Shown: piece by piece, positions 3,083-54,278 of the stretch | Numbering within the stretch: position 1 is the stretch's first letter | Layout of the letters: every line of letters begins with the position of its first letter | Sequence record: MK310184 | Source: Phage NC-G | Strand: one strand, 5' to 3' | Length of the DNA stretch: 64,000 bases | Notes under the pieces: model-generated | Told to the model about the DNA's origin: nothing | Databases searched by the model: none | Seen by the model: the letters and a program-made list of their open reading frames with translations, nothing else | Program-made: the position numbers and the translations under genes

Positions 3083-3124
3083 ACGGGTTCCTTAAAGGTA
3101 AATATTTTAATTAGCCTGTTCAAG

Positions 3125-4044: not shown

Positions 4045-4048
4045 AATA

Positions 4049-4065
4049 CCTCCTGAGTATAGGAG
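4049..4065 (-). promoter_or_regulatory. Hairpin sequestering the gene e Shine-Dalgarno
   Basis: Minus strand CTCCTatactcAGGAGG immediately 5' of the e ATG; a GATAAATA late-promoter-like motif lies just upstream (plus 4068..4075). Confidence 0.5.
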
Positions 4066-4078
4066 ATATTTATCATTC

Positions 4079-4760: not shown

Positions 4761-5344
4761 TTACGGCATTCCTCAATAAAAGAATTCAATGTATTTTTCT
4801 TAGTGATATCGTCGTATAGCTTTTTAACTTTAGAAATACGAAAAGGCACTTCAATAACTGCAGTCCATAAAAATGATGCGATAAGACCTAAGATAGCCGC
4901 AGACATAGCTGAAGCGAATACAGAAATAGGCAGGTCGTTATCTGTTGTCAGGAAAAACCCTAGGAGTGGGAAAAATAATATACCCATCCAAACATAGAAT
5001 CTAGAACTCACCAATTTGTCATATTCATCACTCCACGTACGAAAACCATATTTTTCACTATAACAAATCAATGGGTCCGGTGTTTGTTCTTTATGTGGTT
5101 TCGCTTGCCACCCATTTACGATATAACCCATTCTGAACTCCTCAATTAAAAGTCGTTTCATTTCAGCAGTACAGCCTGACCAATCTACTGTACTGGCTGA
5201 AATTCCTTCATCACCATCATCAAGATTCAGCCAGGACTTTTTAATAATCATATTCTCACCACTTGGGATAATAATTCCGGCATTTTCTGACCTACGGATG
5301 AAGTTTGTATCAATACCCATACACCCAGGTTCATAAAGGGCCAT
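4757..5344 (-). CDS. Hypothetical membrane protein, 195 aa, ending in FIEECRK
   Basis: Two hydrophobic segments (FYVWMGILFFPLLGFFL and AAILGLIASFLWTAVI); C-terminal motif shared with two other ORFs. Confidence 0.5.
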   Translation of the reverse strand: MALYEPGCMGIDTNFIRRSENAGIIIPSGENMIIKKSWLNLDDGDEGISASTVDWSGCTAEMKRLLIEEFRMGYIVNGWQAKPHKEQTPDPLICYSEKYGFRTWSDEYDKLVSSRFYVWMGILFFPLLGFFLTTDNDLPISVFASAMSAAILGLIASFLWTAVIEVPFRISKVKKLYDDITKKNTLNSFIEECRK

Positions 5345-6030
5345 TACCAGCCCTCCATAGGGAATTCCAGATAAACTTGGGCATTAACGCGGATTTCATT
5401 GGTAATATTTTTAACACGGTCAGTGTTACGAGATACACGTCCAAACCAGCGCCAGCCGTTACTTACCGTACGAGAACCAGTATGCCAGGTTTGCCAATCA
5501 AACTGCAAGAGTGTACGGTCCGGAGCTTCCCACTGTTCTAATTCACCTGATTCAATTTTGGCCAAGACTTCTTTATGCCATTGGCGATAAATCAATTCAC
5601 CTTCTGGGATTTCACTAAAGGTGGCTTCACCGGTAGCAAAATGGGTAGGACACACATCAGCGTTAACAAGACCAAGAATGTGTTCAGACAAATAGTGAGG
5701 ATTGTCATAATCGGGTTGACCTGCAGTAATAAAATGTTGGCCCGTTGGAATAGGTGGACGTGGAACATCGTCGTGGTGATAACCTGGGATAGCCGGATAC
5801 CAGCCAGGCATCAACATATGCACACGTGAATCAAACACTACTTGATCATTATTCCAATCATCAGGCAAGTTCATAATAAAAGAGCGAGTAATAGGACCAC
5901 CATTATTATAAGCAAATTCTAAACTACAGTTGAAGAACATAGGCTCGTTCTTGATTTTATCATTAGAAATACCGCCAGCAAAACCACCTACTGCACGAGC
6001 TTTAGAATTAAAAGTTTTCGGACCGTTCAT
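5344..6030 (-). CDS. Hypothetical protein, 228 aa
   Basis: Long ORF, same strand, abuts neighbours. Confidence 0.5.
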   Translation of the reverse strand: MNGPKTFNSKARAVGGFAGGISNDKIKNEPMFFNCSLEFAYNNGGPITRSFIMNLPDDWNNDQVVFDSRVHMLMPGWYPAIPGYHHDDVPRPPIPTGQHFITAGQPDYDNPHYLSEHILGLVNADVCPTHFATGEATFSEIPEGELIYRQWHKEVLAKIESGELEQWEAPDRTLLQFDWQTWHTGSRTVSNGWRWFGRVSRNTDRVKNITNEIRVNAQVYLEFPMEGW

Positions 6031-6044
6031 AATATTTTCCTCGC

Positions 6045-6257
6045 TTACTTTTTGTTGAAAAAGTACATTTTACCTTTAGGAGATAAGGATACACGAAGTG
6101 CGTTACCAATACCAACTGAACATTTAACCAGGTCAGCAGATTTCAATTCACCAAATGCTTGACGAAGGTCACCGTCACGAGTGTTAACCATCAGACATTT
6201 AGCACCAGCTGCACGAACTTCGTTTAACATGTTGATTGCTTGGTTAGAAAGTTTCAT
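6045..6257 (-). CDS. Hypothetical small protein, 70 aa
   Basis: Start at MKLSNQ preceded by GGAGAAT; promoter cassette directly upstream. Confidence 0.45.
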   Translation of the reverse strand: MKLSNQAINMLNEVRAAGAKCLMVNTRDGDLRQAFGELKSADLVKCSVGIGNALRVSLSPKGKMYFFNKK

Positions 6258-6284
6258 TTTATTCTCCATTTCACTCTGTTGTTT

Positions 6285-6325
6285 TGATAGGTCTATAGTA
6301 TCACACCTATAGACCTTGTACACTG
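6285..6325 (-). promoter_or_regulatory. Early promoter plus stem-loop cassette (PeSL-like)
   Basis: Minus strand GTGTACA, then GGTCTATAGgtgTGATACTATAGACC (9-bp stem enclosing an extended -10), then conserved leader CTATCAAAACAACAG. Confidence 0.5.
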
Positions 6326-6335
6326 TTTTATGCAA

Positions 6336-7295
6336 TTATTTTTCGAAAGGGCGAATTAAATGTTGGTTACGCTTAAACCGGTTGATGTAGTCACTTTCAC
6401 CTAGGGTCTTATACATATTCACTACAGCTTGGTAGTTTTCCCAGGCGTACTCACGGAACCACCCGGAAGTAATTGAGGTACACACTTTCTCAAGAGCCAT
6501 ATAAAAACTTAACGATGGTGAAATATTAAAGTCATTAGGAACCTGCGAACGTTCTAGTGCCAACACACAGGTTTCTTCATATACACCAGCCAGTTTAATA
6601 GCTTCAGGCAAAGCTTCAAACTTCTCACGCGAGGTCATGACTTCAGAACCATCTTTCATATAAAAGGTATATGCCGGACGTCCAGCCAATGCCACGGCTT
6701 CATGAATAGAGTCATGGTCTAATGTATAAATGGTATCATTAAAGAACGATGATTTGTTAACGTCTAATTTAGGGTGGGAATAGCTCAACGTTTCTTTCTG
6801 ACGTTGCAGCATGATTTCTTGGAGCTCTTCATTCAAGGTTACACCTTTATTACGAAGGTATTTGATGTGAGACATCGTCTTCAGAAAGAACGGGTTGTTC
6901 TTCAAATATCGATGGCTCATTTTGATAGCCAGACAGATATCAGGCGTGGCCCAATAGAAACCAGTAAGACGGTCCTTTTTAATATGATTTTCAGCATATT
7001 TCAAAAGACGATAGCTTGAAGTGAAATCTTCGTCTTGGAGCTCACCGGTGATTTCTCGTACGTTAGTCAGAGCACGGACAATATAAGCTTCAAAATAGGT
7101 TTCTTTACCATTGTACATACATTTAAAGGCTTGGACATCAGGGTTATCCACAGGAACATGGGCACCAAACATCCGAGCTTTAAAGTGATTCCACGAGCCT
7201 TGGTCGGCAATGAAATCCCAATCAGAATTTTCGATATACTTACTTTCAATCAAACCAGCGTGGTGCAGTGCACGAGAACCAATAACTAGCATCAT
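6336..7295 (-). CDS. Hypothetical protein, 319 aa
   Basis: Long ORF with ATGATG start and GAGGAAAATATT Shine-Dalgarno; no family recognised by eye. Confidence 0.55.
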   Translation of the reverse strand: MMLVIGSRALHHAGLIESKYIENSDWDFIADQGSWNHFKARMFGAHVPVDNPDVQAFKCMYNGKETYFEAYIVRALTNVREITGELQDEDFTSSYRLLKYAENHIKKDRLTGFYWATPDICLAIKMSHRYLKNNPFFLKTMSHIKYLRNKGVTLNEELQEIMLQRQKETLSYSHPKLDVNKSSFFNDTIYTLDHDSIHEAVALAGRPAYTFYMKDGSEVMTSREKFEALPEAIKLAGVYEETCVLALERSQVPNDFNISPSLSFYMALEKVCTSITSGWFREYAWENYQAVVNMYKTLGESDYINRFKRNQHLIRPFEK

Positions 7296-7308
7296 AATAT
7301 TTTCCTCA

Positions 7309-7476
7309 TTAATAAAGACGAGTTACTTCATATTTACCCAATTCAGATTTTTTTGCTTCAATTCGAGTAACAGCAAGATTAGCAGCCTCTAGTGAAGAAA
7401 ATTGGACCACTTGGGAAGTATTCTGCCTTACGCCACCTTGTGGGTGAGTAACAAAAACAATAAGAACATTATACAT
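7309..7476 (-). CDS. Hypothetical small protein, 55 aa (below the ORF-track cutoff)
   Basis: ATG preceded by the same GAGGAAAATATT module used by the adjacent gene; translates MYNVLIVFVTHPQGG... Confidence 0.35.
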   Translation of the reverse strand: MYNVLIVFVTHPQGGVRQNTSQVVQFSSLEAANLAVTRIEAKKSELGKYEVTRLY

Positions 7477-7497
7477 AATATTTTCCTCAGAGTAAAC

Positions 7498-7737
7498 TTA
7501 AATTTCAGCAACATAATCGTTATGCAACTCCCACATATCATCAGAATTATTCTTAATGATAGGAATTATCTCATTAGAGATTTCTTCTGCATAAGGGTCA
7601 TTGATACAGTGGGCATCTTCAAAACGAACACCGTAATCGGACTTCTTATAGGCAAAGCCATAAATCTTTTTAAACTTGGCACGACTAATTCGTACCGGCT
7701 CACCAGACTTATCAGACAGTGGAGAGTAATACCACAT
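7498..7737 (-). CDS. Hypothetical small protein, 79 aa
   Basis: ORF with GAGGAGAACATT Shine-Dalgarno. Confidence 0.4.
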   Translation of the reverse strand: MWYYSPLSDKSGEPVRISRAKFKKIYGFAYKKSDYGVRFEDAHCINDPYAEEISNEIIPIIKNNSDDMWELHNDYVAEI

Positions 7738-7781
7738 AATGTTCTCCTCATGTTTGTGTAGGGTAATAGTAACACAAGTTT

Positions 7782-8111
7782 TTAGAGTTGTACATCACTT
7801 CTGCAATATTCTAAAAATAATTTATCGTTGTCTACGGTATCCCAACGTCGCCAAGATGGATTCCAGACCAAAGCATTGTCACCGCAATCATTGAGCTTAA
7901 AATGGTCATAGTACATAGCTATGCGTTTAGTCTCGTCACCGGAGAACCCTAGTATAGGCTCGCCGTGGGTATGATACATATGATGGTGCATTGAGAGGTC
8001 GCATTTATAAAACATCTCACGTTTACCACGAACGAACAAGAAAGCTTGCCCGTTCATATAGAATTCTTTATCGGTTTTCAAAAGATATTTGAATACTGAA
8101 TCTTTGTGCAT
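7782..8111 (-). CDS. Hypothetical His-rich protein, 109 aa
   Basis: Start at MHKDSV with GGAGGACTT Shine-Dalgarno; contains HHHMYHTHGEP. Confidence 0.45.
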   Translation of the reverse strand: MHKDSVFKYLLKTDKEFYMNGQAFLFVRGKREMFYKCDLSMHHHMYHTHGEPILGFSGDETKRIAMYYDHFKLNDCGDNALVWNPSWRRWDTVDNDKLFLEYCRSDVQL

Positions 8112-8141
8112 AAGTCCTCCTACCACATCCTTGTGGCTATA

Positions 8142-8369
8142 TTATTTTCCTAACGAAATACGAGTAGGTTTTTTGCCAAAGTATTCTTCATAAGAACCAT
8201 CTAAACGTCCTGCTTTAGACCGGCAATATGAATCATACTTTTTGTAATAAGTCATCTCAGTATTATAACGTGGGTGTCTATCAGCCATAATAATACTTAG
8301 TGGCCAACCTTTGGCATAATCGCGAAGACCATTTATTTTACGAATGTATCTTTTCTTTAATTTTAGCAT
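8142..8369 (-). CDS. Hypothetical basic small protein, 75 aa
   Basis: ORF in the track; ATG overlaps the upstream stop. Confidence 0.4.
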   Translation of the reverse strand: MLKLKKRYIRKINGLRDYAKGWPLSIIMADRHPRYNTEMTYYKKYDSYCRSKAGRLDGSYEEYFGKKPTRISLGK

Positions 8370-8587
8370 GAGCTCGGATACCAGATTTTACCATCGGAAC
8401 GAGCAACGAAGGTGCGACCAGCTTCTTCACCATAACAAGAGCTATTCAGCCAATCTTCAAGACGAACTTCACCATCGTAATCGTCTAACTCAACACCAAA
8501 ACTTTGAGCAGAAGCCATATCTTTTACTTTCTTATACAATGCAGCCAGTTCAAGAGCAGCTTTTTCTAATTCATTAATATCAGACAT
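8363..8587 (-). CDS. Small acidic protein, tandem family member 5, 74 aa
   Basis: C-terminus IWYPSSC; N-terminal amphipathic helix; stop plus GGTGATAAA plus ATG coupling with the upstream gene. Confidence 0.5.
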   Translation of the reverse strand: MSDINELEKAALELAALYKKVKDMASAQSFGVELDDYDGEVRLEDWLNSSCYGEEAGRTFVARSDGKIWYPSSC

Positions 8588-8596
8588 TTTATCACC

Positions 8597-8806
8597 TTAG
8601 CAAGACATAGAGGATGTAAACCAGAAACCTTCACCATCTGGGATACCGTAATCATCACGGACCCATTCGTAATCATCATATTCCGGACTAGAAGCCGGAA
8701 TATATTCTTCGCCACCGGCGTGGAAGTGCTGACCTGTTTCGTCAGCCACGGACTGGCCTTTACGTACTAATTCACGGATTTGTTTTTCAATTTCATCAAT
8801 AGTCAT
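8597..8806 (-). CDS. Small acidic protein, tandem family member 4, 69 aa
   Basis: C-terminus FWFTSSMSC; same architecture as neighbours. Confidence 0.5.
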   Translation of the reverse strand: MTIDEIEKQIRELVRKGQSVADETGQHFHAGGEEYIPASSPEYDDYEWVRDDYGIPDGEGFWFTSSMSC

Positions 8807-8815
8807 TTTATTACC

Positions 8816-9013
8816 TTAGCATTCGTAAGAGGACGATACCCAAGAGGTACCGCTAATAGTAATACAACCGTTATAAAGCGTGATATGTCGTTCTAGGTCA
8901 CGAACACCATCGATATAGATATCGGCTTCTTCACGTTCTTCTTTACAAATCTGGATAACGTTTTCAATAGCTGCGGCGGCAGTACGGATTGCACAATCTA
9001 ATTCACGAGACAT
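8816..9013 (-). CDS. Small acidic protein, tandem family member 3, 65 aa
   Basis: C-terminus SWVSSSYEC. Confidence 0.5.
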   Translation of the reverse strand: MSRELDCAIRTAAAAIENVIQICKEEREEADIYIDGVRDLERHITLYNGCITISGTSWVSSSYEC

Positions 9014-9022
9014 AATATTTCC

Positions 9023-9304
9023 TTAACATTCAGAAGAGGAGGACACCCAGCCGCCATTTTCCAGGTCGGTTGTGTAGTCATGGGTATTAACAATAGCCCA
9101 TTCAGGATGACCATCTTCTTCCCAATGAGCAAGGTCAGCTTTCAAGGCGCCAGGAGAATAATAGTCACCGCCCATACCGCGAGCAGGGTATATATTAAAA
9201 TGAGTCTCATATTTGTCTGCAATTTCCTCAGCGCGGCGAATAGCTTCATGGATTTCTTTTACTGCGGCCAGAAGCTCTGGATGGTTGTGGTTATCATTCA
9301 TCAT
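9023..9304 (-). CDS. Small acidic protein, tandem family member 2, 93 aa
   Basis: C-terminus GWVSSSSEC. Confidence 0.5.
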   Translation of the reverse strand: MMNDNHNHPELLAAVKEIHEAIRRAEEIADKYETHFNIYPARGMGGDYYSPGALKADLAHWEEDGHPEWAIVNTHDYTTDLENGGWVSSSSEC

Positions 9305-9313
9305 AATAGTTCC

Positions 9314-9604
9314 TTAGCACAGCGCTGAAGAGGAGACCCAAGCACCAACTGTAACGACGCCATTTTCAACTTCACCGCCGTTGTTTTCGATTTCATCTTT
9401 AAACCACTGGGAGCATTCATAACCGACCGGATAGTATGTACGACCTGAGCCATAATCACCGGTCCCGAATTGAATACCGTACTTATCGGCAATAGCTTCA
9501 CATTTATGTTCGATGATATCTACTTTACCGAGTAGAGCATAGATAGCCTTTTCTGCAGATTTCTCGTCATTGTATTCGGGGATTTCAATTTCAATTTTAT
9601 TCAT
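9314..9604 (-). CDS. Small acidic protein, tandem family member 1, 96 aa
   Basis: C-terminus AWVSSSALC. Confidence 0.5.
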   Translation of the reverse strand: MNKIEIEIPEYNDEKSAEKAIYALLGKVDIIEHKCEAIADKYGIQFGTGDYGSGRTYYPVGYECSQWFKDEIENNGGEVENGVVTVGAWVSSSALC

Positions 9605-9954
9605 GATTTACATTCCTTAATAAAGGTTTCAAGGTCATTACATTTGGTTTGTTTTACATACTCATTATAATTAGCCATCTCTAAAGCATATCTCTTACGG
9701 ATGGGAGCATTCAAAGCATTTGTGTGGCAAATATCATACACAACAGGGATAAAATAAGCTACAACTGCCGGGGCGATTATCATATAGAACCCCATCTCAA
9801 TTGGCATGACTCCTTCTATTGCAGCCATAACCGTGGTCATTACCAGGCCAACCAGGCCGCCGAGCATACCGGTGGCAATTCCTAATAATAAATTTGAGCC
9901 AATATCATATTCAGCCAATTGATAAACATGTGATGAAAGACTAGGCCGCTCCAT
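9601..9954 (-). CDS. Hypothetical membrane protein, about 117 aa, ending in FIKECKS
   Basis: Track ORF begins at a GTG; the internal ATG at MERPSL has an AAGAGG Shine-Dalgarno; two hydrophobic helices. Confidence 0.45.
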   Translation of the reverse strand: MERPSLSSHVYQLAEYDIGSNLLLGIATGMLGGLVGLVMTTVMAAIEGVMPIEMGFYMIIAPAVVAYFIPVVYDICHTNALNAPIRKRYALEMANYNEYVKQTKCNDLETFIKECKS

Positions 9955-10483
9955 TTTGAACCTCTTTAGCGTATTCACGACATTCTTTAATAAAATTATT
10001 AAGCTTACGTTGCTGTTTACGACTTTCTAATGTATACTCGTCAGCCAAGGCAAGAAGCTCATCTTTATCGTAATTTTTAATATCCGAATAACTCGGGCGG
10101 CGGTCGACCATTCCAAATACATCACCGTTTTCTAGTGCCACATAACATACTAAATGATAATCATCATCTGCAACATTAATATGTACACAGTCAGTACTCT
10201 CGTTTAAAGAATATACTGAATATCTCACTCCGGCGAATTTAGCGCTCTGTACACCCAGATTTATGTCAATAATTTCTAAAGCTTCTGCAAAAGAAAGGTC
10301 TTCAGCTAAAGCAAAGATAAAGGGTAATTTGGTAGTATCGCCACGGCTAGATGTTCTGCTTAAGAAATCGTTTGAATAGCCTAGGTCTTGGCGAATTCTA
10401 TAAAGAACTGAATTGGTTTCATGGGAAAGACCACTATTTTTAAACCAATCAATATTTGATATAAGGTTATCATATAAACTCAT
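9941..10483 (-). CDS. Hypothetical protein, 180 aa, with FIKECR near the C-terminus
   Basis: ORF in the track. Confidence 0.45.
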   Translation of the reverse strand: MSLYDNLISNIDWFKNSGLSHETNSVLYRIRQDLGYSNDFLSRTSSRGDTTKLPFIFALAEDLSFAEALEIIDINLGVQSAKFAGVRYSVYSLNESTDCVHINVADDDYHLVCYVALENGDVFGMVDRRPSYSDIKNYDKDELLALADEYTLESRKQQRKLNNFIKECREYAKEVQNGAA

Positions 10484-10531
10484 AATATTCTCCTCTCCTC
10501 CAAATAGGGAGACCGAAGTCTCCCGGTAACA

Positions 10532-11125
10532 TTACTTAAGTGAATTAATGTAGTCTTCGATATCAGCTGAAGTCGTATCCATTCCAACTTGAGGGCCTTT
10601 AAACGTTTCTACACGCATCAGGGTGTCTTCAATATCAATCTTAGTCAGTGCAGCGATTTCAACAACGTCATCGGCAGTAGCAATACCCAATGCAGCCATA
10701 TTACGAGTTTCACGGATATATTCCAACTTAACTGCTAGTTCCTGTCGAGAGTCATCAAGTTCCTTGACCTTCAGTTTAATTTCATTACGCATTTCGATAT
10801 AATCGTCAGCTTTCTTACGAAGCTGTGTAGCCGTACGACGATAAAGGAGGCCAAGTTTAGCATGCACCTGGACATCGGCGCCTTCTTTAATCAGTTTACG
10901 AATTTCGCGTTCTTTAGAAGCAGCGAGCTGGTCTTTTTCATTTGCCAATGCACGAATGCGTTTTTCTTCATTCACCGACTTAACATGAGCGGTCTGGAGT
11001 TCAGTAATTTTATCAATCAGGGTAGAAGCAGCTTTAGTGTACTGGTCTTCGATTGACAGGTTCTGAGTCATTGCAGTACCCAGTTTAGAACGGATGAATT
11101 CAACAATTTTCTTTAAAGTATTCAT
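10532..11125 (-). CDS. Coiled-coil protein, possibly PspA/IM30-like, 197 aa
   Basis: Start at MNTLKK with GAAGGAAAT Shine-Dalgarno; long charged heptad-like helices; promoter cassette upstream. Confidence 0.45.
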
Positions 11126-45128: not shown

Positions 45129-45556
45129 TGTTCCTTATCCCTGATGATTACGAATTAACTCTAGAAAGCGTAGAGGCCAAAATTCCAGAAGCACAGGGAC
45201 GTTTTGCTACTCTTTCTGAAGCCCTCGAGAAAAGCGATATAAATAATCTTGTAGAGAACATGATTGCTGATGGCGATATTGATACAGCTATTGCCATCGC
45301 CTCTTTGAATGAAAATATGGCTCTTAACGAATTTATCGTTAAGCACGTTTCTTCTAAAGGTGAGCTTACTCGTACTAAAGATATTAAAACCCGTCAACGC
45401 AACGCTTATCAAACGACCGGGTTGTCTAAAGCAAAACGCCGTCAGATTGCTCGCAAAGCATCTAAAACCAAACGTGCTAACCCGTCTATTCAAGTACGCG
45501 CCGAACGTAAGCGTAAGAAAGCTCGTTCTAAACGTAAAGCCTTTGGACTTAACTAA
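45128..45556 (+). CDS. 68: Prohead core protein gp68
   Basis: 142 aa, as T4 gp68. Confidence 0.8.
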
Positions 45557-46191
45557 TGAAACCTGAATTGCTCATCGAACATTGGGGACAACCAGGTGAA
45601 ATTATCGATGGGGTTCCAATGTTGGAATCTCATGATGGAAAAGATTCTGGACTTGCCCCAGGCCTTTATATAGAAGGCATATTCATGCAAGCCGAAGTGG
45701 TTAACCGTAATAAACGTCTTTATCCAAAACCTATTTTGGAAAAAGCTGTTGCTGATTATATGGCAGAACAGGTTGCTACTAAACAAGCTTTAGGAGAATT
45801 AAATCATCCGCCTCGTGCTAACGTCGACCCTATGCAAGCCGCTATTATTATTGAAGATATGTGGTGGAAAGGTAATGACGTTTATGGACGTGCTCGTATT
45901 ATTGAAGGCGACCATGGTCCTGGTGATAAACTAGCTGCTAATATTAGAGCCGGTTGGGTACCTGGTGTTAGTTCTCGTGGTCTAGGTTCTTTAACTGAAA
46001 CCAATAAAGGATATAAGCGCGTAAACGAAGGTTATAAATTAACCGTCGGTGTTGATGCAGTATGGGGTCCATCTGCTCCTGATGCTTATGTAACTCCTAA
46101 ACAAATTACAGAATCACAAACGGTAGATACCGATACCAGTGCCGATGACGCCTTTATGGCTCTCGCAGAGGCCATGAAAAAAGCGTTATAA
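45556..46191 (+). CDS. 21: Prohead core protease gp21
   Basis: 211 aa at the T4 gene 21 position. Confidence 0.9.
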   Translation: MKPELLIEHWGQPGEIIDGVPMLESHDGKDSGLAPGLYIEGIFMQAEVVNRNKRLYPKPILEKAVADYMAEQVATKQALGELNHPPRANVDPMQAAIIIEDMWWKGNDVYGRARIIEGDHGPGDKLAANIRAGWVPGVSSRGLGSLTETNKGYKRVNEGYKLTVGVDAVWGPSAPDAYVTPKQITESQTVDTDTSADDAFMALAEAMKKAL

Positions 46192-47058: not shown

Positions 47059-48618
47059 ATGAAAAAGAATGCATTAGTTCAAAAATGGTCCGCTCTGCTG
47101 GAAAACGAAGCTCTTCCTGAAATCGTTGGTGCTTCTAAACAAGCTATCATCGCTAAAATTTTCGAAAACCAGGAACAAGACATCCTGACTGCTCCGGAAT
47201 ACCGTGACGAAAAAATCTCTGAAGCATTTGGTTCTTTCCTGACCGAAGCTGAAATCGGTGGTGACCACGGTTATGATGCTACCAATATCGCTGCTGGCCA
47301 GACCTCTGGTGCAGTAACTCAGATTGGGCCGGCAGTAATGGGTATGGTTCGTCGTGCTATTCCTCATCTGATTGCTTTTGATATTTGTGGTGTCCAGCCT
47401 CTGAATAACCCTACCGGTCAGGTATTTGCACTGCGTGCAGTATATGGTAAAGACCCTATCGCTGCAGGCGCTAAAGAAGCTTTCCATCCGATGTATGCTC
47501 CGAACGCTATGTTCTCTGGTCAGGGTGCTGCTGAAACTTTCGAAGCACTGGCTGCAAGCAAAGTTCTGGAAGTTGGTAAAATTTATTCTCACTTCTTCGA
47601 AGCTACCGGTTCTGCACACTTCCAGGCTGTTGAAGCTGTAACCGTTGATGCAGGCGCTACTGATGCCGCTAAACTGGATGCTGCTGTTACCGCTCTGGTT
47701 GAAGCTGGTCAGCTGGCTGAAATCGCTGAAGGTATGGCTACTTCTATCGCCGAACTTCAGGAAGGTTTCAACGGTTCTACCGATAACCCGTGGAACGAAA
47801 TGGGCTTCCGCATCGACAAACAAGTTATCGAAGCTAAATCTCGTCAGCTGAAAGCAAGCTACTCTATCGAACTGGCACAGGACCTTCGTGCAGTACACGG
47901 TATGGATGCAGATGCTGAACTGTCCGGTATCCTTGCTACCGAAATTATGCTCGAAATCAACCGTGAAGTTATCGATTGGATTAACTACTCTGCACAGGTT
48001 GGTAAATCTGGTATGACCAACACCGTTGGCGCTAAAGCTGGTGTGTTTGACTTCCAGGACCCGATTGATATCCGTGGTGCTCGTTGGGCCGGTGAGAGCT
48101 TTAAAGCCCTTCTGTTCCAGATTGATAAAGAAGCAGCCGAAATCGCTCGTCAGACCGGTCGTGGTGCTGGTAACTTCATCATCGCTTCCCGTAACGTAGT
48201 TAACGTACTGGCTGCAGTTGATACTTCTGTAAGTTATGCAGCTCAAGGTCTGGGTCAGGGTTTCAACGTTGACACAACCAAAGCAGTATTTGCCGGTGTT
48301 CTTGGTGGTAAATATCGTGTTTACATCGACCAGTATGCTCGTTCCGATTACTTCACCATCGGTTATAAAGGTTCCAACGAAATGGACGCAGGTATCTACT
48401 ATGCTCCGTACGTTGCACTGACTCCGCTGCGTGGTTCCGATCCGAAGAACTTCCAACCGGTAATGGGCTTCAAAACTCGTTACGGTATCGGTATTAACCC
48501 GTTCGCTGACCCAGCTGCTCAGGCGCCTACCAAACGTATTCAGAATGGTATGCCTGACATCGTTAACAGCCTCGGTCTGAATGGTTACTTCCGTCGCGTA
48601 TATGTTAAAGGTATCTAA
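47059..48618 (+). CDS. 23: Major capsid protein gp23
   Basis: 519 aa; N-terminal propeptide ending LTEAEIGGDHGY at a gp21-type LxE cleavage context. Confidence 0.95.
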   Translation: MKKNALVQKWSALLENEALPEIVGASKQAIIAKIFENQEQDILTAPEYRDEKISEAFGSFLTEAEIGGDHGYDATNIAAGQTSGAVTQIGPAVMGMVRRAIPHLIAFDICGVQPLNNPTGQVFALRAVYGKDPIAAGAKEAFHPMYAPNAMFSGQGAAETFEALAASKVLEVGKIYSHFFEATGSAHFQAVEAVTVDAGATDAAKLDAAVTALVEAGQLAEIAEGMATSIAELQEGFNGSTDNPWNEMGFRIDKQVIEAKSRQLKASYSIELAQDLRAVHGMDADAELSGILATEIMLEINREVIDWINYSAQVGKSGMTNTVGAKAGVFDFQDPIDIRGARWAGESFKALLFQIDKEAAEIARQTGRGAGNFIIASRNVVNVLAAVDTSVSYAAQGLGQGFNVDTTKAVFAGVLGGKYRVYIDQYARSDYFTIGYKGSNEMDAGIYYAPYVALTPLRGSDPKNFQPVMGFKTRYGIGINPFADPAAQAPTKRIQNGMPDIVNSLGLNGYFRRVYVKGI

Positions 48619-48633
48619 TATAAACCTTATTAT

Positions 48634-48655
48634 GGGAGACTTCGGTCTCCCATTC
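48634..48655. terminator. Bidirectional terminator hairpin after gene 23
   Basis: GGGAGACttcgGTCTCCC with flanking A/T runs, between convergent genes. Confidence 0.55.
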
Positions 48656-48666
48656 TTGTTTCTATA

Positions 48667-48933
48667 CTATGCAATCTTAACACGACGGTTGATGATATCA
48701 CGGAAGTCAATACGATTTTCTTGGATTTTCAGCCAGTTACCAGATTTGTCTTTGGTATGGGTAGAGTATTCACCGTTCCACCAGAAGTCGGTAGCATAAG
48801 CCATGGCTTCGTATTTCTTAACTAGTGCATTCACTGCATTACCGTTAGGATTGGAACCATATTTTTCTACCAGGGCTTTGATGTCTTTATCAAGAGCGGA
48901 AAGAGTAGTACGAATAAAGTTTAACTTGTTCAT
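48667..48933 (-). CDS. Hypothetical small protein, 88 aa, in the position occupied by segD in T4
   Basis: Start at MNKLNF with GAGGAGATT Shine-Dalgarno; driven by its own promoter cassette; no GIY-YIG motif. Confidence 0.5.
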   Translation of the reverse strand: MNKLNFIRTTLSALDKDIKALVEKYGSNPNGNAVNALVKKYEAMAYATDFWWNGEYSTHTKDKSGNWLKIQENRIDFRDIINRRVKIA

Positions 48934-48944
48934 TTTTAATCTCC

Positions 48945-48995
48945 TCATGTTTTGATAGGTCTATAGTAACATGTGATAACCTTGCTGTAAACAAC
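48945..48995 (-). promoter_or_regulatory. Early promoter cassette (PeSL-like) between genes 23 and 24
   Basis: Minus strand GTTTACAgcaaggttatcacaTGTTACTATAGACCTATCAAAACATG, same leader as the cassettes near the tRNA cluster. Confidence 0.5.
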
Positions 48996-48998
48996 TTT

Positions 48999-49006
48999 TA
49001 TAAATA
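48999..49006 (+). promoter_or_regulatory. T4 late-promoter motif TATAAATA upstream of gene 24
   Basis: Exact TATAAATA about 28 nt before the gene 24 ATG. Confidence 0.55.
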
Positions 49007-49034
49007 AACATATACCCTCAATAAGGAAAGCGCA

Positions 49035-50318
49035 ATGGCAAAGATTAACGAATTACTGCGCGAGTCAACAACTACTTCTAGCAACTCATTGGGTCGCCCT
49101 AATCTTGTTGCTTTGACCCGTGCTACAACCAAATTGATTTACCGTGATATTATTGCTGAACAACGTACTAGCCAGCCTATTGCTGCATTGTATGGTGTCA
49201 AATATCTTACTCCTGATAATGAATTTAGCTTCCAAACTGGTGCCGTTTATGGTGGTGAAGTTGGTTCTAAAGACCGTGAAACTATCCCGGAACTCACAGA
49301 TAAGGCCCAGGCTATTGCCAAGGGTGAATATTTCAAGTATCAGAACATAGTTTATAAGGCTCTTCAAGCAAGCCCACTCGCATCCACTAGCGCTACAGAA
49401 TTGACTGATGCCCTTCAAGAAGGTTTGGTGTCATTAACATGTCGTCTGGTTCCTGATGCGGCTCACACAGAGAAATTCGAAGCAGGTGATGTTGAAATTA
49501 GTAATGCAGTATTCCAGGTTAATAAATGGAACGCACCTGTTAAGTCTCGTAAACTTAAAACCGCTTTGACTGTAGAACTAGCCCAAGACATGGAATCCAA
49601 TGGCTTCGACGCCCCTGCGTTCTTAGAAGACCTTTTAGCCACTGTAATGGCTGATGAAATCAATAAAGACGTACTACAATCCTTGATTACCGTATCCAAA
49701 CGCTATAAAGTTACTGGTGTATCTGATAATGGTATTATTGATTTGACTTATGATAGTGCTCCGGAATCTGCACGTAAACTTTATGAAATTGTTTGTGAGA
49801 TGAATTCTGAAATCCAGAAAACTACTTCTTATTCTGGTACGTTTGTTGTGGCTTCAAGTCGTGTAGCTGCAATGCTTGCGGGTTCAGGCTGGTTAAAACA
49901 TAAACCTGAAGATAATAATTGGCTCCCAGAAACTGCCTATGGTTATTTGTTGAATGGATTACCTCTGTTCTGTGACGTTAACAGCCCGTTGGATTATGTT
50001 ATCGTCGGTGTTAAAGAGAACTATGGTGGTAATGAAGTTGTCGGTTCTATTTTCTATGCCCCGTACACAGAAGGCCTGGATTTAGACGACCAAGAACACG
50101 TTGGTGCTTATAAGGTTATTGTCGACCCGGATTCATTACAGCCTTCTATTTCTCTGATGGTTCGTTATGCACTGTCCGCTAACCCGTACACCGTAGCTAA
50201 AGACGATAAAGAAGCTCGTGTTATAGATGCAACCAATATGGATTTAATGGCTGGACAGAGTAATATGTCTTATCTGCTTGGTGTTAAACTTCCAGCAATT
50301 ATTTACGAGGCTGATTAA
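49035..50318 (+). CDS. 24: Capsid vertex protein gp24
   Basis: 427 aa; MAKINELLRESTTT... is near-identical to the T4 gp24 N-terminus. Confidence 0.95.
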   Translation: MAKINELLRESTTTSSNSLGRPNLVALTRATTKLIYRDIIAEQRTSQPIAALYGVKYLTPDNEFSFQTGAVYGGEVGSKDRETIPELTDKAQAIAKGEYFKYQNIVYKALQASPLASTSATELTDALQEGLVSLTCRLVPDAAHTEKFEAGDVEISNAVFQVNKWNAPVKSRKLKTALTVELAQDMESNGFDAPAFLEDLLATVMADEINKDVLQSLITVSKRYKVTGVSDNGIIDLTYDSAPESARKLYEIVCEMNSEIQKTTSYSGTFVVASSRVAAMLAGSGWLKHKPEDNNWLPETAYGYLLNGLPLFCDVNSPLDYVIVGVKENYGGNEVVGSIFYAPYTEGLDLDDQEHVGAYKVIVDPDSLQPSISLMVRYALSANPYTVAKDDKEARVIDATNMDLMAGQSNMSYLLGVKLPAIIYEAD

Positions 50319-51598
50319 TGTCTAAGATTATAGACCTAATTAAAGAATCCACATTGACGGCTGCCAACTCGGTTGGCCGTCCTGCTCTTCTTTCATACAC
50401 CCAAGCAACTAATAAACGAATCTTTAAAGCCCTAGTTGCTGAACAAAAAACAAGCCAACCTGTTGCCGCTCTGTACGGGGTTCGTGTACTTAATCCCGAC
50501 GACAAAATGACTTATCTTGGTGGTGCTACATTTGCAGGCCAGATTGGTATGTCGGAACGTGAAAATATTCCTGAATTTACCGATTCGTCTACAGCTTATG
50601 CAGCCGGAGATATGTTCCAGTTTGAAAGTGTAGTGTTTAAAGTTCTAGAAGCATCCCCTTTCGCCGGAACCACAGAAACCGACCTCGGTGAAGTTATTTC
50701 TGAAGCAGTGGCCGCTGGACATATTCGTATGGTATCAGATGCTGCTATTACTTCTAAATTTGAACAAGGCCATCCTGAAATTGCTGAAGCAGGCTTCCGT
50801 ATTGACAAATGGCAATCTGAAGTTAAATCACGTAAACTGAAAACTTCATTGACAGTCGAATTGGCCCAAGACCTAGAATCAAACGGGTTTAATGCTCCTA
50901 ATTTCGTTGAAAATCTGCTAGGTATTCAAATGGCGGAAGAAATTAATAAGGACGTATTACAGTCATTAATTACGGTGAGTTCTCGTTTTAAAGTCCAGGG
51001 TGTTTCTGAAAAGGGTGTATTAGACCTTACTAACCCGCGTTACGATAATGCCCAGGACCGTGCTCGTACATTATATTATTACATGTGTGAGATGAACTCT
51101 GCCGTCCAACGTCAAACTTCTTTCGCCGGGACTTATGCAGTAGCTAGTTCTCGTTGTGCTGCTATTCTCGCCGCTTCCGGTTGGGTTGAGAAAAAGGAAG
51201 ACCAAGACGAACTGGCTTATGGTGTATTAAAGAATGGTCTGCCTCTTTATGCCGATATGAATAGTCCATGTGATTATGTTATTGTTGGTGTAAATGCTCA
51301 GATGGGTGAAGGACAGACGGTCGCATCTTTATATTATGCGCCTTATACGGAAGGTTTGGATGTGGTTGATGAAGAAGGTGATACTTCAGTAGGTGAATTT
51401 AAGGTTATTGTTGACCCGGAAAGCTTACAACCTACAGTAGCATTGCTTGCTCGTTATGCATTGACTGCAAACCCTTATACCGTCGCTAAGGACGATAAAG
51501 AAGCCCGCATTATTGATGGCTCTGATATGGACAAAATGGCTAACCAAAGCCAGTTGAGTTCTTATCTTGGTGTTAAACTTCCACCACTAGAAAAATAA
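50318..51598 (+). CDS. Second, diverged gp24-family vertex protein paralogue
   Basis: 426 aa, colinear with gp24 at roughly half identity by eye (shared KSRKLKT, TVELAQD, INKDVLQSLITVS, PYTVAKDDKEAR); TAATG overlap with gene 24. Confidence 0.85.
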   Translation: MSKIIDLIKESTLTAANSVGRPALLSYTQATNKRIFKALVAEQKTSQPVAALYGVRVLNPDDKMTYLGGATFAGQIGMSERENIPEFTDSSTAYAAGDMFQFESVVFKVLEASPFAGTTETDLGEVISEAVAAGHIRMVSDAAITSKFEQGHPEIAEAGFRIDKWQSEVKSRKLKTSLTVELAQDLESNGFNAPNFVENLLGIQMAEEINKDVLQSLITVSSRFKVQGVSEKGVLDLTNPRYDNAQDRARTLYYYMCEMNSAVQRQTSFAGTYAVASSRCAAILAASGWVEKKEDQDELAYGVLKNGLPLYADMNSPCDYVIVGVNAQMGEGQTVASLYYAPYTEGLDVVDEEGDTSVGEFKVIVDPESLQPTVALLARYALTANPYTVAKDDKEARIIDGSDMDKMANQSQLSSYLGVKLPPLEK

Positions 51599-51600
51599 AA

Positions 51601-51622
51601 GGGACCGTAAGGTCCCTTTATT
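51601..51622. terminator. Bidirectional terminator hairpin
   Basis: GGGACCgtaaGGTCCC between the convergent gp24 paralogue and rnlB. Confidence 0.5.
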
Positions 51623-51624: not shown

Positions 51625-52632
51625 TTATTTGGATACTAATTCAATCCATACGGCTCTTAAGGTATCTTTTACACACTCAACGAGCTGCTTTTTAACTTCA
51701 ACAGGGTTTTCTGCATCGGTTAATTCTAATTCTTCACGGGCTGCCTCTTCCAAAATATCTTGGACCGTTAGTCCCATTACCTTTCCGAAATCTTTAGGTG
51801 ATACTTCACCAATCTTACTGATAACGTTGTTAATACGGTTAACAGTCACATAATCAGTGAATTGCCACATCAAGTCCATATCGTCTTGGGACAATACCAC
51901 TGGAACCTTAATAGGCTTGTCAGACTTTTTCTTCTCGCTGAATTTAGAGTTCTTACATTTAATAGCTACACGATTTCCGTTTGGAAGCCAGAGTGGGTAG
52001 CAAGGTTTTAATACATACCCTTCAGCCGTAAATACTTCGCCTTTTGCTTCAGACTTCCATACACGGGCATTAGCTTCAATTAACCCGACATTATCTACCA
52101 TAAAATTATAATCTTGGACAACAGAATCTAAATCATTTGGCAATTTAATAAGGTCTTCAAATTTACCACGGCCTAAAAGTGGGGCAACTTTAAATCGAAA
52201 TGTCTTACAGAATGATTCCAACATATAATCATCGACATAAGTCACATCGCCACTTTCTGTGGTAACAATAATGTCAAATACATAAAAATCTTTATCACCA
52301 TAATCAACATTCTTCTGAATGCCAGGCCCGGCTAGTTCACCAAAAACTTGATAAGATACAGCAGCTGAAGTTTCCATGATATCTTGTACTGCTTTAATGG
52401 AATCAGCATAATTCTTTAAAACAATTTCATAACCAAAGAAATCTTCGGCTGGGAGAATTGGGCCAGTTCGCTTGGCACATGTGACTGCGCCACGTTCTAT
52501 GATTAAACTAAAGTTGGTTCCATGAATCTTCTCACGTGCTACCCATTCACCACCAGTCAAACCATGGATACGGAGTTTTTCGATAAACTTACTGTTGTAG
52601 TGGTTTTCGAGACTGCTATATTTCTTAAACAT
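51625..52632 (-). CDS. rnlB: RNA ligase 2
   Basis: [20 protein letters not shown]...[19 protein letters not shown] is near-identical to T4 Rnl2, including the adenylylation lysine motif KIHG. Confidence 0.95.
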
Positions 52633-52633
52633 A

Positions 52634-53002
52634 TTATTTGCTTCCATAATCAATTTTAACTAATTTACCTTTAAGGTAACCATAATTTGAAGGTTTACAA
52701 TCAGACATATACATGCTTTCTACTAAGGTTTGGTGCCTTGCATGATGTATTTCTGTTTTCCATAATCCGATATTCGTAACTTCTTGGGCCCTAGGCATAA
52801 CTATAACAAACCCTAACCAAGATTTCCATATAACAGGACACAAATACGGGTCCTTCAATGATGAGAATTCGTGTTCCGTTATATTGCAATAGAGCCCGGT
52901 TAAAAACAGTTTCCAACTATAGAAGCTTGGTATCTTAATGGCGTATCGTTTCGTCAGGAAGACCTGCCGGGTTGCACCATTTCTTTTTCTGATAAATGGC
53001 AT
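52634..53002 (-). CDS. Mini protein-kinase-like protein, 122 aa
   Basis: AIK (beta3-lysine-like), DCKPSN (catalytic-loop-like) and IDYG (DFG-like) motifs in kinase order. Confidence 0.4.
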
Positions 53003-53116
53003 AAATCACCATAATAAATATAATTAAATAGAAGAGCTAGTAATCTTCTGTCACCAAGCCAAATGGTTTAACGGAAGGACCTAGACCCATTATAACACAC
53101 CTAAATTTAAAGCATA

Positions 53117-53326
53117 TTACTTTGAACTAGAACGCGCTTTGCGCCGAACCTTATTGATTAGACGTTTACGATATACCACTTTCTCTTTTGTTTTAAATTT
53201 CTCTTTGGCTTGTTCCACATCAACCCATGCTTTGGCCATATCCTTAGCGGTCCCGCCCATTTTTTTAGCAATTTCTATAAAATTCAAACCAGATTCGTGT
53301 AAAAAATGTACTTTAACCTTATCCAT
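53117..53326 (-). CDS. Small helix-turn-helix-like DNA-binding protein with basic tail
   Basis: SGLNFIEIAKKMGGTAKDMAKAW resembles an HTH; start at MDKVKV because a promoter-like element overlaps the upstream ATG. Confidence 0.4.
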   Translation of the reverse strand: MDKVKVHFLHESGLNFIEIAKKMGGTAKDMAKAWVDVEQAKEKFKTKEKVVYRKRLINKVRRKARSSSK

Positions 53327-53429
53327 AACAATTCTCTCGTTGAGTTGGTAAACCCATCTTAACATAGGATTTTTAACTTGTAAACAGGAATTTTGTACTT
53401 TAATGCAAAATGGGCCTTGCGGCCCATAA

Positions 53430-54278
53430 TTAGTAAACGTAATCGTATATAATACCAGCTTCTAAAGCGGTGCGATGAATAATTCGACCATTACGAGATT
53501 CCTGTACATCAACCTCTGGGTAGTCGGTAATCATTTTTTGAAGTGTGTATCGGTGCAAATAATACGGGCTATCCGGGTCATCTGTTTTCCAGTCTTGTCC
53601 GGCAAGAGCCATTTTCTGGATTTCATCCATAACCCACCAACCACACCAGATATAAGCTGAATTACGAACTGGCAGCGGGTGGACGTAAGGTAGTTCGCCT
53701 TCCGGTTCAGGAGCAACTTTAGGCGTAATTGTTACATTACCAGATTTTTTGACAGTCACAGGATTATAGTCGGTAGCCGAAACCACAACAGAAACTTCAA
53801 TAACCTGTGAACCTTCGGCACTAGTATCAACCACTAAAGTATCTGTGGTGCCAACTACAGGAGAACCGTCTTTCTTCCAAGAATAGGCAAAAGTAGCTCC
53901 ACTCGGTGCGCCGGCTACAGTAGCTTTAAAAGAAGCCGGAGTTCCTTCAGGAACATTAATTGATTCTGGGGTTAATGTCACAGAAACACCAGACATAGTT
54001 TTATTCTGGATAGTTAAAGTTGTCTCGGCCTCAGCAGTTTCCGGTTCGCCTTCCGCTGGTGTAGTTGTTGCAACAACTTTAATAGTCTTGCTGCCTGCTG
54101 GACCAACAGCAACATAATCCATTGCAGCAGTCACAGAAGATTGAGGAACGCCATCAACGGTCCAGACAAATGATTCGGTACCTTCAGCTGCAGCACCGGA
54201 ACCGGTCGCAGTGAAATTGGTTGTTGCTCCAATAACGGCCGTAGCCGCCAAAGGAGCAATAGATACGGTATAAGCCAT
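53430..54278 (-). CDS. hoc: Head outer capsid protein Hoc (Ig-like domains), 282 aa
   Basis: Thr/Val/Ser-rich Ig-like repeats followed by a C-terminal capsid-binding region; position next to inh. Confidence 0.75.
   Translation of the reverse strand: MAYTVSIAPLAATAVIGATTNFTATGSGAAAEGTESFVWTVDGVPQSSVTAAMDYVAVGPAGSKTIKVVATTTPAEGEPETAEAETTLTIQNKTMSGVSVTLTPESINVPEGTPASFKATVAGAPSGATFAYSWKKDGSPVVGTTDTLVVDTSAEGSQVIEVSVVVSATDYNPVTVKKSGNVTITPKVAPEPEGELPYVHPLPVRNSAYIWCGWWVMDEIQKMALAGQDWKTDDPDSPYYLHRYTLQKMITDYPEVDVQESRNGRIIHRTALEAGIIYDYVY

Follow-up and report, generated by a model that had tools for sequence, protein, structure and literature searches.

Bacteriophage T4 possesses a single gene 24 for its capsid vertex protein, as its own locus confirmed, whereas phage NC-G (MK310184) had two such genes side by side. 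The question raised by this locus was what the second protein might contribute to the capsid, and how old and how common the arrangement was. We analysed it computationally in a window of 64,000 nucleotides, which was the whole stretch of DNA under study. A preliminary description had reported two adjacent open reading frames of 427 and 426 aa, and these were confirmed at 49035..50318 and 50318..51598; they are called here 24A and 24B.

Organization of the gene 24 locus

The head genes of NC-G followed the order 20, 67, 68, 21, 22, 23, 24A, 24B, and the last two appeared to fit a late-gene position directly downstream of gene 23 in the head cluster. The following features were found around them:

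48632..48653, no strand assigned: terminator-like hairpin GGGAGAC-TTCG-GTCTCCC, followed by a T-rich run (terminator scan and sequence)
48999..49006, plus strand: T4-type late promoter box TATAAATA, 29 nt 5' of the 24A start codon (pattern search and sequence)
49023..49029, plus strand: Shine-Dalgarno AAGGAAA for 24A (sequence)
49035..50318, plus strand: gene 24A ("24a", capsid vertex protein I), 427 aa ORF, the T4-gp24-like first copy
50307..50310, plus strand: Shine-Dalgarno GAGG for 24B (sequence), within the 3' end of 24A and 7 nt 5' of the ATG
50318..51598, plus strand: gene 24B ("24b", capsid vertex protein II), 426 aa ORF, the diverged second paralogue
51598..51619, no strand assigned: bidirectional terminator-like hairpin AAAGGGACC-GTAA-GGTCCCTTT (terminator scan and sequence)

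The first hairpin was G+C-rich, lay just 3' of the gene 23 stop and could separate gene 23 from the gene 24 unit in the manner of a terminator. According to the pattern search, TATAAATA was the only such box from gene 23 to the end of 24B. It was also present 5' of the first gp24 gene in JS98, VR26, STML-198, F48, T4, KIT01 and RCIP0032, as well as in the metagenome loci L019, L021 and L022; the metagenome locus L024 had CATAAATA. The relatives that were compared carried a purine-rich AAGGAAA, GAGGAA or GAGA at the position equivalent to the 24A Shine-Dalgarno. The TAA stop of 24A (50316-50318) overlapped the ATG of 24B (50318-50320) as TAATG, so the translation of 24B was probably coupled to that of 24A. 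In 11 two-copy loci, the stop and start likewise overlapped or were no more than 1 nt apart. The second hairpin had T-runs on both strands and was located between 24B and the convergent rnlB gene. We infer that 24A and 24B would be co-transcribed late as one unit. Similar to 24A, gene 24 of T4 lies 3' of gene 23 and has a late promoter in front of it, but there the segD homing endonuclease gene is located between genes 23 and 24.

Family membership and predicted fold of the two proteins

The two proteins aligned by BLASTP from end to end with 243/428 identities (57%), 77% positives and 10 gap positions, which was a similarity far beyond chance and agreed with the earlier view of colinear, substantially diverged paralogues. 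Both matched the Pfam family PF07068 (329 bits for 24A and 326 bits for 24B) and phrog_138. Their best PDB sequence matches were the T4 gp24 entries 1YUE, 5VF3 and 8GMO. Namely, T4 gp24 (1YUE) scored 661 bits with 24A and 509 bits with 24B, as against ~45-47 bits for gp23 chains, and the overall identity to T4 gp24 was 70.5% and 56.6%, respectively. The near-identity to T4 gp24 that had been noticed at the N-terminus of the first copy was found in 36/40 of the first residues, as counted from the alignment. Each protein was ~27% identical to gp23 of NC-G (47059-48618). Judged by these sequence comparisons, 24A and 24B were gp24-like and not gp23-like.

The AlphaFold model of 24B had a mean pLDDT of 72 and a pTM of 0.65. 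Its top Foldseek matches were gp24* chains (5vf3_a, 1yue and 7vrt_he; TM 0.72-0.84, with 0.78-0.84 for the best, E 1e-41 to 9e-49), and TM values against gp23* chains were about 0.52-0.62. In this prediction, 24B models as an HK97-like gp24 fold with the T4-type insertion (I) domain. The fold test was applied to this predicted model of 24B, and for 24A the fold rested on its identity to the crystallised T4 protein; the PDB sequence search returned no solved structure of any B-type protein, that is, of the 24B kind.

Many columns were invariant along the whole chain across B-type, first-copy and single-copy gp24 proteins, and nothing in 24B pointed to a new domain or to missing P and A domains, which form the shell. 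The propeptide motifs (arrow, cleavage site) were MAKINELLRE↓S in 24A and MSKIIDLIKE↓S in 24B, and the cleavage motif (L/I)xE↓S was present in every B-type N-terminus of the alignment. In T4, the prohead protease removes 10 residues from gp24 (PMC9546572), and NC-G encoded a gp21 homologue at 45556-46191. T4 gp24 (1YUE; in situ 5VF3, 7VRT/7VS5) resembled 24A and 24B in family, fold and propeptide motif. The mature proteins were predicted to be 45.5 and 45.2 kDa with a pI of 4.66 and 4.65, and their net charges were virtually identical. Since the predicted masses and pI were nearly equal, gel-based virion analyses would not separate 24A from 24B. The decoration-like role that had been suggested for the second copy found nothing in its support: 24B kept the gp24 length, the cleavage motif and the gp24-type predicted fold.

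Distribution and earlier annotation of the pair

NC-G was a Dhakavirus of the JS98/JS10-like kind, and its genes were the known 24a/24b pair (capsid vertex protein I/II), not a new one. In GenBank, the labels were 24a/24b in JS98, JS10 and IME08, "24(2)" in VR7, "head vertex protein I/II" in Salmonella phage CGG4-1 and "capsid vertex protein I/II" in the VR phages (VR5/VR20/VR25/VR26). A full-text literature search for work on 24b yielded neither proteomics nor genetics nor a structure, and no direct sign of the protein in virions. The literature on F48, the Kosakonia phage, Morganella MP1, Jiaodavirus proteomics and Tn-seq said nothing on the gene 24 pair.

Like NC-G, JS98 (EF469154) and JS10 (EU863409) had gene 23, a small antisense ORF, 24a, 24b and the convergent rnlB. 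NC-G 24A was 97% identical to JS10 24a, and 24B was 99.8% identical to JS10 24b. These phages differed from NC-G by allelic mosaicism only: 24A was more diverged than 24B against JS10 (dS 0.33 and 0.06), and the reverse was true against JS98 (dS 0.29 and 1.13).

B-type genes were found in 113 of the 1,452 gp24-carrying phage records. They belonged to several genera, namely Dhakavirus, Gaprivervirus, Gelderlandvirus and Marfavirus, and to relatives infecting Enterobacter, Kosakonia and Erwinia. The tandem of a first copy and a B-type gene between gene 23 and rnlB was identical in JS10, JS98, VR5, VR26, STML-198, F48 and Ec2-ASingh, and the tandem was also present in 10 metagenome loci. Wherever the layout was read (18/18 loci: the NC-G window, L001-L006, L018 and L019-L028), gene 23 was followed by the first gp24 gene and then by the B-type gene, which never occurred alone.

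Age, co-inheritance and selection

In the neighbor-joining tree, with bootstraps counted by bipartitions, the B-type proteins including NC-G 24B formed a separate clade (100% bootstrap) with a long stem (0.18). This clade was placed outside a 99%-supported clade that contained 24A and the T4, RB69-like, Karamvirus and Moonvirus proteins. The first and the second copy of the same genome were 52-57% identical in 16/16 genomes. Across these 16 two-copy genomes the copies co-diverged (Mantel r = 0.82, p = 2e-4), and B was slightly more conserved, with a mean identity of 77% versus 72% for the first copy. The dS between 24A and 24B was ~2, with saturated synonymous sites. Strong purifying selection acted on both genes, with pairwise dN/dS among eight genomes of 0.04-0.14 for 24A and 0.02-0.08 for 24B, and the pair was clearly functional. 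24A and 24B were ancient, stably co-inherited gp24 paralogues and not a fresh duplication. The initial idea of a tandem duplication of gene 24 was thus right in that there were two tandem paralogues, but they were neither peculiar to NC-G nor recent (dS ~2, a clade of their own, several genera).

An assembly artefact had been named as a possible source of the pair, and we considered it together with a recent duplicate and a decaying pseudogene. Only the tandem arrangement itself would suggest any of them. The same pair was found in phages sequenced independently in many laboratories (113 records with B-type genes) and in independent metagenome assemblies, which argued against an artefact. The 57% identity and the saturated dS spoke against a recent duplicate, and the intact frames under purifying selection against a pseudogene. 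On these grounds, we ruled this group of explanations out as virtually impossible. Gene conversion or concerted evolution between 24A and 24B was rejected separately: third-position identity was 26-60% throughout, and the longest exact match was 18 nt.

The deep nodes of the tree, which bear on the date of the duplication, had bootstraps of 19-39%, and a synapomorphy count gave 1-2 informative sites per alternative deep grouping. A different origin was also conceivable, in which recombination brought the B-type gene in from some remote T4-like phage, as yet unsampled, and placed it beside the resident gene 24. In the trees, B was not sister to A and branched close to, or below, the gp24 groups of Jiaodavirus/Tegunavirus and of Acinetobacter phages. 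Moreover, A and B alleles clearly reassorted among related phages, as in the dS contrasts of NC-G with JS98 and JS10, and partner mismatches were observed (e.g., P0047 and P0089). However, there was no single-copy B-type phage in the 113 B-type records or in the metagenome contigs inspected for seven B-type clusters, so no donor lineage is known. The deep placement of B had the low bootstraps given above with informative sites almost absent, and acceleration after duplication would account equally well for the topology. The correlation of r = 0.82 showed that the pair had been together for most of its history. Thus, we regarded capture as quite unlikely; it would concern the origin of B only.

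B-specific residues and possible pentamer contacts

In the alignment, 22 sites were fixed differently between the B clade and the first-copy (T4-type) clade. Seven of them were located in the N-arm, residues 11-59 (positions 25, 26, 32, 34, 36, 56 and 57; binomial p = 0.009), and one was in linker 1 of the I domain (position 68). Together with a two-residue deletion at T4 positions 292-293, these fixed differences set 24B apart from the T4-type clade. In T4 gp24*, aa 26-29 pair with the I-domain linker of the neighbouring subunit of the same pentamer (PMC9546572). This role and the changes in the N-arm and linker 1 favoured the view that B may have its own co-adapted intra-pentamer contacts. 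There was a hint that B-rich or all-B pentamers might occupy a subset of vertices, rather than the two proteins mixing at random. The homopentamer preference came from a few fixed substitutions read in the light of the T4 structure.

Alternatively, 24B could have left the vertex role and kept the gp24 fold for other work, such as a prohead assembly or size factor that is later removed, a portal-proximal or special position in the shell, or a non-structural decoy. Unique fixed changes were roughly doubled on the B stem relative to the first-copy clade (20 versus 10), as after a change of function, and the B-specific deletion, the N-arm substitutions and the dependence of B on a canonical gp24 in 18/18 loci were in line with it. 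On the other hand, 24B was of full length with invariant columns along the chain, and retained the propeptide motif and the predicted gp24* fold. Its size, pI and net charge were virtually those of 24A, and there was no hint of a new domain or of lost P or A shell domains. Departure from the vertex was therefore, in our judgement, very unlikely.

Proposed role of the pair in the capsid

The explanation that we considered reasonably probable as a whole was a co-diverged 24a/24b pair in which both proteins were vertex subunits of the prohead shell. 24B itself would most likely be a second capsid vertex subunit. The 24A and 24B proteins would enter the prohead shell as HK97-fold vertex subunits, and the gp21 protease would cut a 10-residue propeptide off both after Glu10, the end of the conserved (L/I)-x-E. 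Together they would fill the 11 pentameric vertices other than the portal vertex, which take 55 subunits. The mixed or alternative vertex composition put forward at the outset was compatible with all observations made here.

The paralogy of gp23 and gp24 was a similar case: it was likewise a tandem duplication of a capsid-shell gene, after which one of the copies became specialised for some of the lattice positions, and gp23, 24A and 24B were all PF07068 members encoded by consecutive genes. However, the gp23/gp24 split was much deeper (27% identity), and the split of its two products into hexamer and pentamer proteins has been demonstrated, whereas any such division between 24a and 24b would be hypothetical. 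The vertex protein is itself an older duplicate of the major capsid protein. In gene 23 "bypass-24" mutants, gp23 fills the vertices (PMC9546572).

Several Dhakaviruses had a single gene 24 with flanking genes as in NC-G (KIT01, MX01, AnYang, PSD9, C6, UGJNEcP3/4, fDHCT2, 04086 and vB_EcoM_005). KIT01, which is filed under Dhakavirus, encoded a gp23 97% identical to that of NC-G, and the pair was therefore not an absolute requirement of this lattice. The KIT01-type gene 24 was a separate lineage (68% identical to 24A and 54% to 24B), and DNA homology between the KIT01-type and two-copy loci extended over only the first ~250 nt of gene 24, to about position 757 in a query of 2,001 nt. An origin of the KIT01 gene as an A/B recombinant with one copy deleted was rejected: a sliding window detected no switch between A-like and B-like sequence, and the gene fell in a separate clade. 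In T4, all 55 gp24* subunits are conformationally alike (PMC9546572), so there was no obvious structural need for two vertex proteins.

These single-copy Dhakaviruses with nearly identical gp23, along with T4 and many other genera that manage on one gp24, would also fit redundant or alternative vertex proteins, where either 24A or 24B alone could build all 11 vertices and the pair would buffer conditions or hosts. Such conditions could be temperature, pH, or a bacterial defence that either senses the vertex protein or depends on it. In T4, the vertex protein adds to capsid stability at low pH and 37 C (PMC10580926), and the vertex protein of T6 is needed to trigger type IV Thoeris, from which an A380V mutant escapes (PMC13243611). 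We nevertheless found redundancy unlikely. The B-type gene was never seen without the first copy in 18 loci, which would be unexpected if B alone were enough, and redundancy rarely preserves two copies at dN/dS ~0.05 over such divergence. The single late promoter for both genes gave no sign of condition-specific expression. As for immune escape, A380 was unchanged in both 24A and 24B, which left the idea without support at that position, and the wild-type T6 protein in trans restored immunity (PMC13243611), which means that the trigger would stay exposed despite a second copy.

Returning to two vertex subunits in one shell, a more specific version would have two chemically distinct kinds of pentamers in the prolate head, with B homopentamers in one geometric class and A elsewhere. 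The B class might be the apical vertex alone or either of the two five-vertex rings. We put this forward tentatively, as an arrangement that was on balance improbable.

Implications for T4-like capsids

The 24A/24B pair of NC-G was an annotated feature observed again, and what was added to the known annotation was evolutionary: the age of the pair, its co-divergence and fixed order, the purifying selection and the clustering of B changes in the N-arm. One-gene and two-gene Dhakaviruses with near-identical gp23 provide a built-in natural control. If the version with two kinds of pentamers were true, this would be a natural capsid with fivefold vertices unequal in composition, and the vertex classes could differ in stability or in what they interact with, such as host sensors that recognise the vertex protein. 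Large prolate capsids are commonly understood through T4, for which one species of vertex protein is assumed. Since more than 100 sequenced relatives keep a strongly constrained second vertex paralogue, never alone, the rule of "55 copies of gp24" may not apply to the subfamily as a whole.

Gene content and layout of the locus

The gene 24 region of Phage NC-G contained the following features.

47059..48618, gene for gp23, the major capsid protein
48632-48653, hairpin then a T-rich run, 3' of the gene 23 stop
48667-48948, minus strand, small antisense ORF of 93 aa between genes 23 and 24 (phrog_6003, function not assigned)
48999-49006, T4-type late promoter box TATAAATA, upstream of A
49023-49029, ribosome-binding site AAGGAAA, ahead of A
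49035..50318, plus strand, A (24a), first gp24 copy, ORF of 427 aa
50318..51598, plus strand, B (24b), second gp24 copy, ORF of 426 aa adjoining A
51598-51619, bidirectional hairpin between B and the convergent rnlB
51625-52653, minus strand, rnlB (RNA ligase 2), mechanically called ORF of 342 aa with a TTG start

The two adjacent ORFs were present in the window exactly where the preliminary description had placed them. It had also called them colinear yet diverged, and pairwise alignment agreed, since they aligned end to end with 57% identity, 77% positives and 10 gap positions. The T4-like N-terminus ascribed to A was borne out by 36 identical residues among the first 40 (counted from the alignment), and T4 indeed had a single copy of gene 24. 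Both proteins matched Pfam PF07068 (Gp23 family, ~327 bits each) and phrog_138, and each was only 27% identical to the gp23 of the window. Against solved structures, both matched T4 gp24 (1YUE, 5VF3, 8GMO) far above gp23; the best T4 gp24 structure scores were 661 bits for A and 509 bits for B, and whole-length identity to T4 gp24 was 70.5% and 56.6%, respectively.

Judging from the signals in the DNA, we read A and B as one late unit in which B, the second cistron, was probably translationally coupled to A. A search between A and B found no second TATAAATA box, GAGG was located inside A 7 nt upstream of the ATG of B, and the stop of A and the start of B overlapped as TAATG. JS98, VR5, VR26, STML-198, F48 and four metagenome contigs shared this arrangement: a late-promoter box and a ribosome-binding site preceded the first copy, whose stop overlapped or abutted the start of the second.

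At the site of the antisense phrog_6003 ORF, in the gap between genes 23 and 24, T4 had the segD homing endonuclease, and an endonuclease was additionally present there in IME08 and IME341; this intergenic slot appears to be an insertion hotspot. For rnlB, a T4-like start (MFKKYSS) was found 7 codons further downstream (ATG at ~52632), giving 335 aa, in agreement with the 1,005-1,008 nt rnlB annotated in JS98 and JS10. Downstream of rnlB, a variable region (window 52634-54278 versus 7030-11105 of the JS10 locus) encoded a 122-aa ORF (phrog_4301), a gp24.3-like 82-aa ORF (phrog_1566) and one Hoc-like gene (282 aa, minus strand) in the window, whereas the JS10 annotation listed a "tail fiber-like protein" there, together with hoc-like genes in either orientation. 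VR5 and VR26 had a plus-strand ORF at this point, described in VR26 as similar to a VR7 collagen-repeat protein. Some metagenomic two-copy loci also had extra ORFs directly 3' of the B-type gene and ahead of the convergent rnlB block.

L019 (metagenome locus), 5327-6046, plus strand
L022 (metagenome locus), 4890-6427, plus strand
L024 (metagenome locus), 5326-6841, plus strand
L026 (metagenome locus), 2634-4140, plus strand

One of these loci had a single 239-aa ORF and three had a pair of ~335-350 aa and ~165 aa; none of the ORFs in the four loci had a Pfam match, and the window lacked such ORFs.

Distribution of the pair

The gene 24 pair was already known as genome annotation. In GenBank it was named 24a/24b in JS98, JS10 and IME08, "24(2)" in VR7, "capsid vertex protein I/II" in VR5/VR20/VR25/VR26 and "head vertex protein I/II" in Salmonella phage CGG4-1, and the JS98 genome paper reportedly remarked on it. 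Searching with B by tblastn, we found gp24 homologues in 1,452 phage records (1,578 places), of which 113 had a B-type gene (E ≤ 1e-180). These belonged to Dhakavirus (where the window was placed as JS98/JS10-like), Gaprivervirus, Gelderlandvirus (S16, STML-198, Melville) and Marfavirus (F48, Marfa), as well as to Enterobacter and Kosakonia phages (CIP9, Q7622, Kosakonia phage 305). By searching at the protein level we added Erwinia phage FBB1 and numerous metagenome clusters; the B-type proteins found in this way (P0001-P0021) showed 91-66% identity.

In every layout read (the window, seven phage records and ten metagenome loci) the order was gene 23, first gp24, B-type, and in none of them did a B-type gene stand by itself or come first. 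In these loci B occurred only beside a first copy, which we regarded as dependence on its presence.

Origin and divergence of the two copies

In a neighbor-joining tree of 147 gp24 proteins (100 bipartition bootstraps), the B-type proteins formed one clade with 100% support and a long stem (0.18). B was placed outside another clade (86 proteins, 99% support), to which A belonged together with every other first copy and with the T4, RB69-like, Karamvirus, Moonvirus and KIT01 proteins. The deep nodes that set B against the Jiaodavirus/Tegunavirus and Acinetobacter-phage proteins had a support of only 19-39%, and when group-specific states were counted, informative sites were nearly nil. Unique fixed changes were about twice as many in B as in the first-copy clade (20 versus 10). 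Two proteins, one the Serratia phage X20 vertex protein (P0080) and the other from a metagenome (P0031), were ~57-58% identical to B, yet they branched outside all of the Tevenvirinae, Acinetobacter-phage and B-type groups; this placement may be unreliable or a sign of another old gp24 lineage.

Within each of 16 two-copy genomes, identity between the copies was a constant 52-57%. For A and B of the window dS was ~2, and no gene-conversion tract was found between them, the longest exact match being 18 nt. The 24a/24b pair is therefore ancient, and B went through a phase of accelerated change before it was held under constraint. Since no single-copy B-type phage was seen, we leaned toward duplication in place, no later than the base of Tevenvirinae, with losses afterwards. 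Capture of B from an unsampled lineage would also account for its position, and we considered it quite improbable.

First-copy and second-copy divergence were strongly correlated across the 16 genomes (Mantel r = 0.82, p = 2e-4), and the few outliers indicated partner swapping. Accordingly, A and B were mostly inherited together since B settled under constraint. Compared with JS10, dS of the window was 0.33 in A and 0.06 in B; compared with JS98, it was 0.29 in A and 1.13 in B. These contrasting values showed allelic mosaicism inside the gene 24 pair (window 49035-51598), with a recombination breakpoint at or near the A/B junction. A matched the database protein of Phage NC-G at 100% identity, and B was 99.8% identical to that of JS10, dhabil and CLB_P2.

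A lineage of 13 records, to which KIT01, MX01, AnYang, PSD9, C6, UGJNEcP3/4, fDHCT2, 04086 and vB_EcoM_005 belonged, had a single gene 24, which was flanked as the pair was and belonged to a different clade. In the Dhakavirus KIT01 (locus L011, 2501-3781) this gene product shared 68% identity with A and 54% with B, and gp23 was 97% identical to that of the window. DNA homology between KIT01-type and two-copy phages was lost near position 757 of the 2,001-nt query, some 250 nt inside gene 24. An A/B chimera was ruled out for the KIT01-type gene.

Constraint and the possible role of B

Purifying selection on both copies was strong. Pairwise dN/dS among 8 genomes was 0.04-0.14 for A and 0.02-0.08 for B, and mean identity among the 16 genomes was 77% for B versus 72% for the first copy, making B, if anything, the more conserved. 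The possibilities of an artefact, a recent duplicate or a pseudogene were excluded.

T4 gp21 cuts 10 residues off gp24 (PMC9546572), and the counterpart of this site, an (L/I)-x-E|S motif at residues 8-11, was kept in every B-type N-terminus printed. B was modelled with AlphaFold from an alignment of 44 sequences (mean pLDDT 72), and the model resembled in-situ and crystal gp24 (TM 0.72-0.84) clearly better than gp23* (0.52-0.62). The mature proteins had predicted masses of 45.5 kDa (A) and 45.2 kDa (B), pI values of 4.66 and 4.65 and a net charge of -19. With such similar size and pI, A and B would run together on gels, a possible reason why routine virion SDS-PAGE left the question unsettled. 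A non-vertex role for B seemed quite unlikely, as nothing in its length, fold, motif or charge pointed to one.

We propose that A and B would both be made late from a single transcript, taken into the prohead as vertex subunits and processed by gp21. At 22 positions the B clade and the first-copy clade were fixed differently. Seven of these were in N-arm residues 11-59 (V25L, A26S, T32N, L34R, Y36F, K56R, Y57V; binomial p = 0.009 for the excess), and another, T68G, was in I-domain linker 1. In expanded T4 heads, gp24* residues 26-29 make a parallel β interaction with an I-domain linker of the subunit next to them within one pentamer, and residues 11-20 extend onto the neighboring hexamer (PMC9546572). 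Set beside these T4 contacts, the N-arm and linker changes would fit intra-pentamer contacts that co-adapted in B separately, a hint of B-rich or all-B pentamers. That the structure strictly needs two vertex proteins was argued against by the conformational likeness of all 55 gp24* subunits in T4 (PMC9546572) and by the single-gene-24 lineage, with its non-chimeric gene and the 97% gp23 identity of KIT01.

Alternatively, A and B might be redundant or alternative vertex proteins, serving stability or an interplay with capsid-sensing immunity. In its favor, type IV Thoeris requires the T6 vertex protein as a trigger, and the A380V change allows escape (PMC13243611). However, A380 was retained in both copies, and this reading was hard to reconcile with B never being found alone and with the constitutive co-expression suggested by the sequence signals, so that we regarded it as unlikely. 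The alanine at T4 gp24 position 380 (about residue 380 of A and B) was near-invariant in both clades.

The gene 24 pair is real and biologically tidy, and its presence would hardly surprise a specialist. In the accessible literature we found no proteomic, genetic or structural study of 24b. Our analysis added that the pair is widespread, in 113 phage records and in metagenomes, and that its gene order is fixed. It also added that identity between the copies within a genome stays at 52-57%, that they co-diverge under strong constraint, that B-specific changes are concentrated in the N-arm, and that one-gene sister phages exist as natural controls.
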